Assembly (NCBI GenBank): GCA_031409655.1
Contig: JANNXQ010000107.1
Coordinates: 32,001-96,000 of the forward strand
Reading direction: 5' to 3'
Origin: Chthoniobacteraceae bacterium
Lineage (GTDB): Bacteria > Verrucomicrobiota > Verrucomicrobiia > Chthoniobacterales > Chthoniobacteraceae
DNA length: 64,000 nucleotides
The first letter of the stretch is position 1, and each line of letters begins with the position of its first letter. Below, piece by piece: positions 57,518 to 59,885 of this stretch. Made by a program: the position numbers and the translations under genes. Below the pieces are notes generated by a model. That model did not search any database and was not told the origin of the DNA. It worked only from the letters and a program-made list of their open reading frames with translations.

Positions 57518-58105
57518 ATGGAAAAAGGACGACTCGAAGCCTTCAGCGATGGCGTCATCGCAATCATCATCACGATCATGGTGCTGGAGATGAAAGTGCC
57601 GCACGGCGCGGACTGGGCCACGCTCCAGCCGCTGCTGCCCGTCTTTCTCTGTTATGTGCTGAGCTTTCTCTACGTCGGCATCTATTGGAACAATCACCAC
57701 CATCTCCTGAAGGTCTGCCGCCGCGTGACCGGCGGAATCATGTGGGCCAACCTGCACCTGCTGTTCTGGCTCTCGCTCTTTCCATTTGTCACCGGCTGGA
57801 TGGGTGAAAATCACTTCGCCGCCAGCCCGACCGCCCTCTACGGCGCGGCGCTCTTCTGCGCCGCCATCGCTTACTACATTCTGCAGAGGCTCATCCTCAT
57901 TCACCACGGCAATAAGTCGCGGCTGGCTGAGGCGATTGGCTGCGACTGGAAAGGCAAGCTCTCCCCCGTGCTTTATCTTGCCGGTATCGGCCTGTCGTTT
58001 TGGCAGCCTGTCCTGGCGGGCGCGATTTATGTTCTCGTCGCGCTGATGTGGCTCGTGCCGGATCGCCGAATTGAACGCGCAATCGAAGGTGGCGATGAAG
58101 GATGA
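57518..58105 (+). CDS. TMEM175 (DUF1211) family K+ channel
   Basis: RLEAFSDGVIAIIITIMVLE, YW.NHH, L.PF.T. Confidence 0.9.
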   Translation: MEKGRLEAFSDGVIAIIITIMVLEMKVPHGADWATLQPLLPVFLCYVLSFLYVGIYWNNHHHLLKVCRRVTGGIMWANLHLLFWLSLFPFVTGWMGENHFAASPTALYGAALFCAAIAYYILQRLILIHHGNKSRLAEAIGCDWKGKLSPVLYLAGIGLSFWQPVLAGAIYVLVALMWLVPDRRIERAIEGGDEG

Positions 58106-58256
58106 AACCCCGCTGCCGTTTCCAGCAGTGGAGCTCGCAACCACCGAATGATGTCAGCCGCACTTACGGCTTCACGATGCGCTTGATGCCGCCGGCGATG
58201 GCCTGCTTCCAGCCGTAGAGGCACTCGACCGTGACGAAGATGCGGTTGCTGCTCGT

Positions 58257-58321
58257 TTGCCGCTCCGGCGGCTATGCAGTATCCGCTCCGCGTTTGTGGG
58301 AGAGCGCTTCCGCGCGGCGCA
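58257..58321 (-). mobile_element. 65-bp hairpin element Y at CCGAA^AC
   Basis: Same conserved blocks as X; removal rejoins YTE|TSS in frame. Confidence 0.85.
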
Positions 58322-58357
58322 TTCGGTGTAGCGCAGGTAGCCGAAGGTGAGGCCAGT

Positions 58358-58423
58358 TTGCCGCTCCGGCGGCCATGCAGAGAGCGCTCCGCGAGTTCGG
58401 CCGTGCGCTTCCGCGCAATTGCA
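58358..58423 (-). mobile_element. 66-bp hairpin element X at CCGAA^AC (in frame)
   Basis: Removal rejoins DPE|TGL. Confidence 0.85.
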
Positions 58424-58492
58424 TTCGGGGTCGGTGACGGCACCGGCCTCGTCGTATTCGGCGACGGGTTCGAGGTAGCGCATGGCGACCGC

Positions 58493-58536
58493 CGAGGAGG
58501 CGGAGGGGAATAAGGAGGCTGGTGGACGGGCGAGCC
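58493..58536 (+). mobile_element. G-rich 44-bp element R (copy b)
   Basis: CGAGGAGGCGGAGGGGAATAAGGAGGCTGGTGGACGGGCGAGCC, flanked GC|GC; 35/44 identical to copy c. Confidence 0.75.
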
Positions 58537-58586
58537 GCTGGAGACGAGCGTTTCGAGGACGTTGAGCGCCGTCTCGCTCGCCTCGC

Positions 58587-58631
58587 TGCTCGCCCGCCCG
58601 CTGACTACCTCTATTCCCTTCCGCCACCTCG
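58587..58631 (-). mobile_element. G-rich 45-bp element R (copy a)
   Basis: CGAGGTGGCGGAAGGGAATAGAGGTAGTCAGCGGGCGGGCGAGCA, flanked GC|GC. Confidence 0.7.
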
Positions 58632-58961
58632 GCGGTGTAGCTGCCGGCGAACTCGCTGGACTGCGACGGAGCGCCGACCACGGGCACGCGCACGGTGTCG
58701 AGTTTGTCCGCCGGTTCCGGCGAGAAGTTCGTGGAAAAGGCGCGCAGCGGGAGCAGTCCGGCCACAAGCTGCGACGGCATTAATGAGTCCAAGGACGCGC
58801 CCACGATGGCCCCGTCAGATGCGTTCGCGCCGCACATCAGGCGCTGCCGGCGGCACGGCGCATTTGCATCTCCAGACGGCGAACGGACGGTTGTGCTCTT
58901 GCGCGCGAGCGCCGATCAATAGGCTATTCTTATCATCCAAACCCACGCCGCTTCCATCCAC

Positions 58962-59885
58962 ATGAATACACTGACCACGACCGAAACCGAAGCCATCCTC
59001 ACCCTTTGCCTCATCGCGTCCTTCGCCGATGGCGACAAACACGAACGCGAACGCCAGCAACTCAAGAAGATCACCGACTCGCTCGCCGGCGGGGAGGTGG
59101 ACATCACCGCGCTCTATCAGCAAGTGCTGCTGAACAATCCCGACGTCGCCGCAGTCGCCGCGCGCCTGCTCACTCCCGGTGCCCGCCAGCTCGCCTACGA
59201 GATGGCCGTGTGCGTGTGCGATGCGGATGAAGTGTGCAACCCCGCCGAACAGCAATTCCTCGATGAACTGCGCACCGCGCTCGCCCTGCCCACCGCCAGC
59301 ACGCAACCGGTGGACGCCGAAGCCACCGCGCTCGCCACCATTCCCGTGGCCTCACCCGCGCCCGCGCAATCCGAGGAAACCGACGCCATGATCCTGCGCT
59401 ACGCCATCGTCGGCGGCGCTCTGGAGCTACTCCCGCAGACCCTGGCCACGCTCGCCATCGTGCCCATGCAGACCAAGATGGTCTATCGCATCGGCAGCCA
59501 GCGCGGCGTCGAACTCGACCGCAAATCCATCGTCGAGTTCATGGCCACGGTCGGCATCGGCATGGCCTCGCAAGTCTTCGAAGGCTTCGCGCGGCGGCTC
59601 ACCAAAGGACTTGGCAAAGCCGTCGCCGGCAAAATGGGCGGCAAGATCGGCGACGCCGTCGGTGGCATCGCCATGTCCTTCGGCGCCACCTACGCGCTCG
59701 GGCAACTGGCGAAACTCTACTACGACAGCGGCCGCAGCCTGAGCATGGAGACGCTCAAAGCCAAATACCCGCCGCTCCTCGCCGAAGGAAAAACGCTCGC
59801 GCAAAAATACACCACGCAGATCACCGAGCAGAGCCAGCGGCTCCAGGGGGCCGGCCTCAGCACGCTGTTGAAGAAGGTGATCTAA
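58962..59885 (+). CDS. TerB-like domain fused to a DUF697/YcjF-like domain
   Basis: ASFADG.K...ER, AYEMAV.VCDAD....E..FL..LR..L; then GALELLPQ.LA..AI.P.Q.KMVYRIG. Confidence 0.75.
   Translation: MNTLTTTETEAILTLCLIASFADGDKHERERQQLKKITDSLAGGEVDITALYQQVLLNNPDVAAVAARLLTPGARQLAYEMAVCVCDADEVCNPAEQQFLDELRTALALPTASTQPVDAEATALATIPVASPAPAQSEETDAMILRYAIVGGALELLPQTLATLAIVPMQTKMVYRIGSQRGVELDRKSIVEFMATVGIGMASQVFEGFARRLTKGLGKAVAGKMGGKIGDAVGGIAMSFGATYALGQLAKLYYDSGRSLSMETLKAKYPPLLAEGKTLAQKYTTQITEQSQRLQGAGLSTLLKKVI

Follow-up and report, generated by a model that had tools for sequence, protein, structure and literature searches.

The window analysed here is a stretch of 64,000 nucleotides (nt) from the draft genome of a Chthoniobacteraceae bacterium (assembly GCA_031409655.1, contig JANNXQ010000107.1, positions 32,001 to 96,000). 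Between a TMEM175-type channel gene (57518-58105, plus strand) and a TerB/DUF533 gene (58962-59885, plus strand), it carries 0.85 kb that holds the remnant of a prophage major-head (capsid) gene, in which sit two short related inserts that we call elements X and Y. The remnant retains only residues ~22-65, 93-108 and 233-297 of a 297-residue protein; in relatives, the intact gene is an open reading frame (ORF) of 297 residues (L026, L029), and the intact homologue matches phrog_283 of PHROG, 'major head protein', with an E value of 5.6e-24. The genome of the window is labelled G000, its relatives bear G-numbers and the fetched loci L-numbers. The features are as follows (positions of the window; the parts of X and Y are listed in their order on the minus strand).

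58172..58780, minus strand: remnant of the decayed prophage major-head gene, host of X and Y, with its frame broken by Y
58358..58423, minus strand: element X, 66 nt, match of 74.4 bits to the covariance model R1 (see below), site empty in seven intact gene copies
Parts of X: TGC, 58423-58421; linker, 58420-58417; hairpin P2, 58416-58405; 11-nt linker, 58404-58394; CGCGGAGCG, 58393-58385; linker, 58384-58381; CTGCAT, 58380-58375; G, 58374; hairpin P4 and AA, 58373-58358
58322..58357, minus strand: host-gene spacer between X and Y, 36 nt, codons for TGLTFGYLRYTE; its 3' end is the second CCGAA target
58257..58321, minus strand: element Y, 65 nt, R1 match of 88.8 bits, site empty in seven intact gene copies
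Parts of Y: TGC, 58321-58319; linker, 58318-58316; P2, 58315-58304; linker, 58303-58293; CGCGGAGCG, 58292-58284; linker, 58283-58280; CTGCAT, 58279-58274; A, 58273; P4 and AA, 58272-58257

X and Y are two separate, clean and precise insertions into a prophage head gene that is now dead, because both sites are empty in the seven intact copies of this gene, which come from four genomes (three copies in G007, one each in G022 and G026, two in G012). The empty X site reads GAG, GAA or GAC before AC, and the empty Y site reads GAA or GAG, while filled sites have GAA in every case; X was placed between the E and T codons of ..DPE^TG.. and Y between those of ..YTE^T... Owing to the AA ambiguity, the boundaries of the X segment may be shifted by 1-2 nt to higher coordinates. 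The Y site is also filled in the loci L046, L091 and L101, by both 65-nt and 68-nt variants across genomes, and all these filled head genes, like the window copy, are dead remnants, whereas the intact copies are empty. The head gene occurs three times in one genome (G007: C5, C2 and C4; L026-L028) and twice on one short G012 contig, which indicates that the prophage or other element bearing this gene is itself multi-copy.

The letters of X and Y on the minus strand proved to be those given in a preliminary description of this DNA, and the five blocks TGC, GCGCGGAAGCGC, CGCGGAGCG, CTGCAT and GCCGCCGGAGCGGCAA are identical between X and Y at 46 of 46 positions. CCGAA precedes and AC follows each of the two, so that the same-target claim of that description holds, as does its distance of 36 bp. 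The pattern search, covariance model, flank logo, linker-target comparison and Rfam comparison reported below are those that it had suggested. The two-block pattern has two matches in the window and none in 100 shuffles, the 3' 16-mer has exactly two matches in the window (X and Y), and across the 6.85-Mb draft genome G000 both are confined to X and Y.

Range, fold and target of the family

Look-alikes of X and Y were first obtained by BLAST against 40 relatives, and 15 of them, together with X and Y, were used to build the alignment A1 and the covariance model R1. Of 151 genomes from the same family, 55 were positive with the model, at 1-13 copies each; the four copies of G000 are X, Y, C20:135-209 and C213:12258-12333. 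Outside the family, one weak R1 match was found in 150 other genomes sampled across the phylum, and a scan of 185,579 species (one genome each) with the exact pattern gave 35 stretches, all titled Verrucomicrobiota and mostly Chthoniobacterales, Chthoniobacter or 'Spartobacteria'. There were also matches in three predicted viral contigs; in two of them, the element lies in a spacer of an array of 12 tRNAs. The element is restricted to one family of soil and sediment Verrucomicrobia, with almost no copy outside it among the genomes searched.

Fetching most of the matches gave a set of 125 copies, 124 of them distinct, with lengths of 60-69 nt, principally 65 (38 copies), 66 (25), 68 (14), 64 (13), 63 (8), 67 (8) and 60 nt (7); 43 of the 124 lengths are divisible by three and 81 are not. 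A neighbouring copy lies within 1.5 kb for 56 of the 124 copies (median distance 254 nt), on the same strand in 30 cases and on the opposite strand in 26 (draft assemblies). The locus L072 (G075:C61) carries at 1639-2181 four same-strand copies at ~156-nt spacing, each after TTCGA and before ATCCCC..CCACCA, in an array whose tandem unit consists of the 3' part of a tRNA and the element. In G164, five contigs (L078-L082) carry nearly identical copies of a 60-nt variant, five in all (element distance 0.05), which share a short flanking repeat while their wider contexts differ; this composite repeat may have multiplied recently.

The architecture common to these copies is a 4-bp closing helix P1 (N-YGC with GCR-N'), which encloses the P2 hairpin (GCGC-GNNA-GCGC), a free linker and the invariant CGCGGAGCG, followed on the 3' side of P1 by one purine, the 5-bp hairpin P4 and one or two A. 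Counting pairs on the 124 distinct copies, with 500 shuffles as the null, we found 95.2% of paired cells versus 88.5% in the shuffles, none of which reached 95.2%, and 97 cells changed on both sides versus 18.2 expected. All five pairs of P4 covary, as do two of the four pairs of P1 and two of the four pairs of P2. The covariation of P1 is independent of the fit of the model, because P1 is absent from the structure of R1. The first base of the insert, which had initially been taken as the last A of the target, pairs and covaries with the last base of GCAT, and at one site shared by three genomes this pair is G:C, T:A and C:G. The preliminary description had proposed a TGC..GCA closure, a first hairpin, a CGC-GGA-GCG mini-hairpin and a 3' hairpin; compensatory changes support the closure and the first and 3' hairpins, whereas the CGC-GGA-GCG block is invariant in all copies, so that covariation speaks neither for nor against it. 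The loops retain letters that are specific to this strand, GNNA in P2, GGA in P3 and NGGA in P4. An alternative helix from RNAalifold (GCGG with CYGC) was dropped, as it clashes with P1, whose covariation is better.

The single-stranded DNA folding energy of X and Y is no better than that of their dinucleotide shuffles (z of −0.32 and +0.10, respectively). The evidence for the structure is therefore the covariation and not the energy, and an exceptional thermodynamic stability is rejected. The blocks are held by selection on the fold, and the whole insert is one closed fold, with its two ends at the bases of P1 and P4. The earlier view that the elements represent selection on an enzyme-recognised fold, rather than a decayed duplicate, is upheld as regards the fold and the rejection of a decayed duplicate by the covariation, the block conservation and the empty sites; as regards the enzyme, none was identified. 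That the linkers are fully variable holds for X versus Y, but family-wide the 11-nt linker has a weak consensus, approximately nCTCCnnCAAA (17-124 members).

The 122 usable copies collapse to 73 distinct sites, whose flanks are non-random and read G (60 of 73), A (71), A (61) ^ W (58), C (42), C (42). This target, GA^A(W)CC, matches the T-loop/T-stem motif of tRNAs, TTCGA^ATCC. Comparison of empty and filled alleles shows no target duplication beyond the ambiguous 1-2 A, and filled alleles read GAA where empty ones often read GAG (head-gene sites and rtcB site). As the first base covaries and the junctions show the AA ambiguity, the inserted segment would most simply be N-YGC...GGCA and the target GA^A. 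We compared the 11-nt linker, earlier suspected of being a guide or spacer, with the 32-nt target on the same strand and as the complement, in 49 parsed of the 73 sites with 1000 permutations. The longest common substring was 3.98 versus 3.81 in the permuted set (p 0.10) and the complement fell below the null, so that there is no linker-target relation in either sense and this role was dropped. The discreteness of the element, its precise boundaries, its target motif, its fold and its distribution are established.

Host genes and conservation in place

Many copies occur in large tRNA arrays of other genomes, which can hold as many as 16 tRNA genes within 3 kb. When the elements were removed in silico, ARAGORN called an intact tRNA spanning the joint for 13 of the 124 copies, most at positions 56-60 (T-loop) and one at position 44 of a tRNA-Glu, nine of them in the sense and four in the antisense orientation; for 20 further copies, a tRNA is no more than 200 nt away. 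More interrupted tRNAs with unusual T-loops, which ARAGORN misses, were seen by eye. In the arrays of L044, L053, L055 and L139, many tRNAs have non-canonical T-loops (for example TGCGATG, CGCGATA or AGCATTA versus TTCGAAT), and some of them also escape ARAGORN.

Host genes were called by Pfam on the natural ORF pieces, since the best spanning ORF after in-silico excision is an unreliable gene finder at 64% G+C. They are as follows, with orientations relative to the host genes of both kinds.

RlaP nucleotidyltransferase: two sites, one sense and one antisense
RtcB: two sites, both antisense
N6 DNA methylase: antisense
Transposases of the ISL3, IS3 and IS4/5 types
Terminase large subunit: 66 nt, in frame, stop-free

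Judged by these genes, the habitat of the element is the horizontally moving part of the genome, because the copies cluster in tRNA arrays and in RNA-repair (rtcB and rlaP), phage, insertion sequence (IS) and methylase genes. The tRNA arrays known as L-arrays spread horizontally, are present on phages and plasmids and are co-regulated with rtcB, according to the accessible text of PMC8421152. In L108 (531-605; G127:C62), a sense copy lies between the HTH_21 and rve parts of an IS3-family transposase, at the position where transposases of this family have their programmed frameshift.

At 23 sites common to at least two genomes, sequence identity is 94.7% in the blocks, 65.6% in the linkers and 75.6% in the ungapped 60-nt flanks. 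Derived traits are shared per site, as in the uniform length of 67-68 nt at one rlaP site, site (f), or the CGGC loop of P4 at the array-leader site, an intergenic site that lies immediately upstream of tRNA arrays, is common to four to five genomes and also shows compensatory change. These shared traits argue that the copies of a site share descent and that the fold was maintained there. By contrast, the 65- and 68-nt variants at the Y site of the head gene argue against simple descent, together with the distances at site (f), where the flanks are at a distance of 0.055 and the elements at one three times as large (0.169), with no correlation between the two (Mantel r −0.19); Mantel tests of element versus flank distance were underpowered and mixed.

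At site (f), present in eight genomes, the 67-68-nt antisense copy splits a Tyr codon (TA|T), so that the upstream ORF ends with ..GALATEF and the downstream one begins with SPRRCFAHYLHMAFG and remains open over 75 to more than 160 codons. Over 66 codons of five copies, the non-synonymous divergence (dN) is 0.007-0.027 and the synonymous divergence (dS) 0.12-0.36, with changes mostly at third positions, and the 11 codons that precede the first in-frame ATG show, in seven copies, five synonymous and no non-synonymous changes. Restart at the TTG of the element is possible in five copies and blocked in three of the eight, and a translational hop finds no matched take-off and landing codons; neither candidate was retained. 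Similarly, tRNA-Cys genes with a copy in the T-loop keep their T-stem by compensation (CCCGG/CCGGG versus TCCAG/CTGGA). As far as sequence comparison goes, the rlaP and tRNA-Cys data fit an element that would somehow be neutralised, being removed from RNA or precisely excised. One rlaP gene (L020; G003:C236:248-1127) has two copies, of 63 nt in sense near the GS motif and of 67 nt in antisense in mid-gene, along with a 14-residue in-frame insert, and its flanking frames are still open.

G000 has two near-identical RtcB genes, one filled (C213:12258-12333; L085 1501-1576) and one empty (C77:3154-4674), the site of which reads GAG and not GAA. The filled gene carries an antisense, 66-nt, stop-free copy that makes an in-frame insert of 22 residues in the N-terminal region, whereas the rtcB copy of G003 is accompanied by a stop codon. 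We compared the G000 rtcB locus with three metatranscriptome contig sets and one DNA run. The assembled RNA contigs that 'skip' the element show 16-26 mismatches, and their joint also occurs in DNA, for which reasons we regard them as empty paralogues or diverged relatives; no precise-excision form of the filled allele was found among the contigs listed at this locus, a result that speaks neither for nor against splicing or excision. No tRNA-intron endonuclease (PF01974) was found in G000.

Mobilisation and rival explanations

From these data we think it rather probable that X and Y were inserted independently of each other and are copies of a non-autonomous miniature mobile DNA that is restricted to this lineage, measures 60-69 nt (mostly 65-66 nt) and is moved by an HUH/Y1 enzyme in trans. 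By analogy with known systems, an HUH-type enzyme supplied in trans and a movement as single-stranded DNA are probably involved. Such an enzyme would recognise the hairpins of the element, cut after two motifs that resemble each other, GA(A) at the left end and GCA(A) at the right end, and insert the single strand after GA by 'peel and paste', with no duplication beyond the ambiguous A(A); two copies would have landed in this way at the look-alike CCGA^AAC sites, 36 bp apart, of the prophage head gene. The enzyme class, the single-stranded intermediate and the reason for the conservation of the blocks after insertion are what we infer here. Y1 transposase genes are abundant in the carriers (13 in G000 and 29 in five others), where they lie on other contigs or far from the element copies.

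Several observations weigh against this proposal. No autonomous parent was found. In G000 there are no isolated left or right halves of the element and no element-like ends near the 13 Y1 genes, and in the 151 genomes the right-end pattern occurs at 55 places, all inside full-length copies (coordinates judged by reading). The number of copies per genome (1-13) is very low for miniature inverted-repeat transposable elements (MITEs) or for repetitive extragenic palindromic (REP) sequences. At the second pair of P1, C.A is common (37-48 copies) and T.G rare (one copy), a bias that is the reverse of the folding prediction for this strand and suits the complementary strand, whereas the loop letters suit this strand. 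The conservation of the blocks in place, far above that of linkers and flanks at the 23 shared sites, and the compensatory pair differences between copies at 11 of these sites also count here, since a purely selfish DNA should decay unless its sites are hit repeatedly. Furthermore, the frameshifting 68-nt copy in rlaP is compatible with continued selection downstream, which insertional inactivation fails to explain.

This conservation would be accounted for by a functional cis element that also moves, namely a binding or processing site, in DNA or RNA, for tRNA-array/RNA-repair islands or for their phage carriers, such as the target of a nuclease or nickase, a signal for processing or a protein sponge with several GGA loops. 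The conservation and compensatory change at the intergenic array-leader site (four to five genomes, with the CGGC loop), the strand-specific loop letters and the strong clustering of copies are in line with it, but the copies lie inside frames and tRNA bodies of unrelated hosts, in either orientation and with no common function apparent, X and Y sit in a dead gene and no partner protein was identified, so that we hold this explanation to be unlikely. A somewhat smaller chance is given to an intron-like mobile insert, in which the folded 65 nt would be cut at both ends from the host RNA, which would then be sealed, with the RtcB ligase encoded beside most copies as one candidate for this step, or would be precisely excised on demand in the T-loops, variable loops and mRNAs of tRNA-array/RNA-repair islands. 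The fold of the element would in this case be maintained through selection on the host gene, as the blocks conserved in place suggest, and the open downstream frame of rlaP with its dN below dS and its synonymous-only changes before the first ATG, the TTG restart blocked in three of eight copies, the compensated tRNA-Cys T-stems, the 13 tRNAs restored by removal and the concentration of copies in tRNA arrays beside rtcB and rlaP all agree with it. However, one RNA fold cannot serve both orientations, and the copies are antisense in rtcB, at site (f) of rlaP, in the methylase gene and in four of the 13 tRNAs; the filled head genes are all remnants and the intact ones empty; the filled rtcB of G003 has a stop codon; G000 lacks PF01974; no ribozyme or Rfam match was obtained; and the skipping rtcB contigs are empty paralogues or relatives.

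The element may otherwise be a selfish DNA tolerated in genes, of the kind of Rickettsia palindromic elements (RPEs) or intragenic REPs, its conservation being due to repeated re-insertion at hot sites. Copies would then persist only in hosts whose product can bear them, through in-frame translation or because the gene is dispensable or split. The stop-free in-frame copies of 66 nt in the G000 rtcB (with its empty C77 paralogue) and in the terminase gene are consistent with this view, as are the two length variants at the Y site and the excess of element over flank distance at site (f), and REPs inside genes, among them those of a verrucomicrobium, are described in PMC3733652. Yet fewer than half of the lengths (43 of 124) are multiples of three, the derived traits common to the copies of a site point to descent rather than re-insertion, and approximately six informative target bases cannot alone explain identical sites in several genera; we thus see little probability in it. 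As for chance similarity or a decayed local duplication, which the proximity alone (36 bp, same strand) could suggest, it is refuted by the shuffles, by the 124 distinct family members found elsewhere, by the sites being singly empty in relatives and by X-Y differences that are confined to the linkers, and its probability is close to nil.

If X and Y are indeed copies of a non-autonomous mobile DNA, they would belong to a compact family of hairpin-guided mobile DNA without a known parent element or enzyme, and the target (GA^A, T-loop-like) together with the 65-nt substrate would provide a synthesizable bait for the responsible HUH-type enzyme. T-loops and variable loops of spare tRNA arrays would be colonised by mobile DNA, of which no earlier description was found. 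It remains puzzling that different genera share sites at which the fold is both conserved and compensated, and that a frameshifted RNA-repair gene evolves like a working one. If, in turn, the element behaved as an intron, bacterial RtcB would gain a splicing-type substrate, and both the fold kept in place and the purifying selection on the frameshifted rlaP would be explained. At the practical level, the inserts break gene and tRNA calls in metagenome-assembled genomes of Chthoniobacterales, where ARAGORN misses the interrupted tRNAs.

Relation to known systems

Palindrome-associated transposable elements (PATEs) is the label for miniature elements derived from the IS200/IS605 family, and the site motifs of IS608 likewise belong to the general background. 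Similarly to IS608, ISDra2 and the PATEs, the X/Y element has same-strand hairpins at both ends (P1/P2 at the left end, P4 at the right end), is inserted 3' of a fixed motif that its own 3' end resembles, and makes no duplication; the miniature forms of IS200/IS605 use an enzyme in trans. In the accessible parts of the reports on IS200/IS605, these elements have subterminal hairpins and make no duplication, and a short fixed target lies on their 5' side, with a motif like it at the 3' end (PMC5027513, PMC3201880). But no autonomous IS with X/Y-type ends was found in the 151 genomes, which was the decisive test of membership, and the X/Y element differs by its single compact multi-helix fold in place of two separate ends, its cut sites directly at the helix bases and its 1-13 copies.

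The element also differs from MITEs with terminal inverted repeats (TIRs) that are moved by DDE enzymes, as its two ends (N-YGC... and ...GCGGCA) do not form an inverted repeat and no duplication is made except for the ambiguous AA. RPEs are longer and are described as in frame. Like them, the X/Y family consists of small palindromic inserts in protein and RNA genes that are not destroyed, with a peptide that in-frame copies would add, but 81 of its 124 lengths are not divisible by three and tRNA T-loops are preferred. IStrons contain a group I ribozyme several hundred nt long, and byp elements need matched take-off and landing codons. Both resemble the present case as mobile gene insertions that are neutralised after transcription, as the rlaP data hint, but the rlaP site has no matched codons and neither system is known to work in tRNAs or in antisense.

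Similarly to the X/Y element, REP sequences and REP doublets forming hairpins (REPINs) are short structured repeats that are thought to be moved in trans by a Y1 enzyme, the REP-associated tyrosine transposase (RAYT); some of them are intragenic according to PMC3733652. The X/Y family is, however, without GTAG or CGTC tag, forms a composite of 60-69 nt versus a palindrome of 20-40 nt, is low-copy (1-13) with many intragenic members, and does not lie beside any Y1 gene of G000 (no REPtron). The spare tRNA arrays correspond to the main habitat of the element, being spread horizontally, carried by phages and plasmids and placed beside RNA-repair genes, whereas no inserted repeat or interrupted tRNA is mentioned in the accessible text of PMC8421152.

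Rfam has no match to X or Y at E values up to 10, and six carrier loci give only tRNAs at the gathering score. No description of the element was found in literature searches on tRNA arrays and REPs of Verrucomicrobia, Chthoniobacter repeats, MITEs in tRNA T-loops or RtcB with bacterial tRNA introns or arrays. The element, which lacks the defining features of REPs and of TIR-MITEs, therefore appears from its sequence features to be a previously undescribed miniature hairpin-bearing mobile element.

Another repeat, Z, of ~50 nt and unrelated to X and Y, is inserted in the same head-gene remnant as two units.

58585..58635, minus strand: Z unit 1, forming a long hairpin with Z unit 2
58488..58538, minus strand: Z unit 2, inverted copy of Z unit 1

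Together the two units make a hairpin of 167 nt, which Rfam weakly mistakes for miRNA precursors. The Z unit recurs in many relatives and at ~8 places in G000 (strict BLAST), and it is possibly a GTAG-type REP, for which it is a better candidate than the X/Y element. In-frame peptide inserts in the rlaP of relatives (for example LARPPS..LRHLG) resemble, by eye, the peptide encoded by Z in the window.
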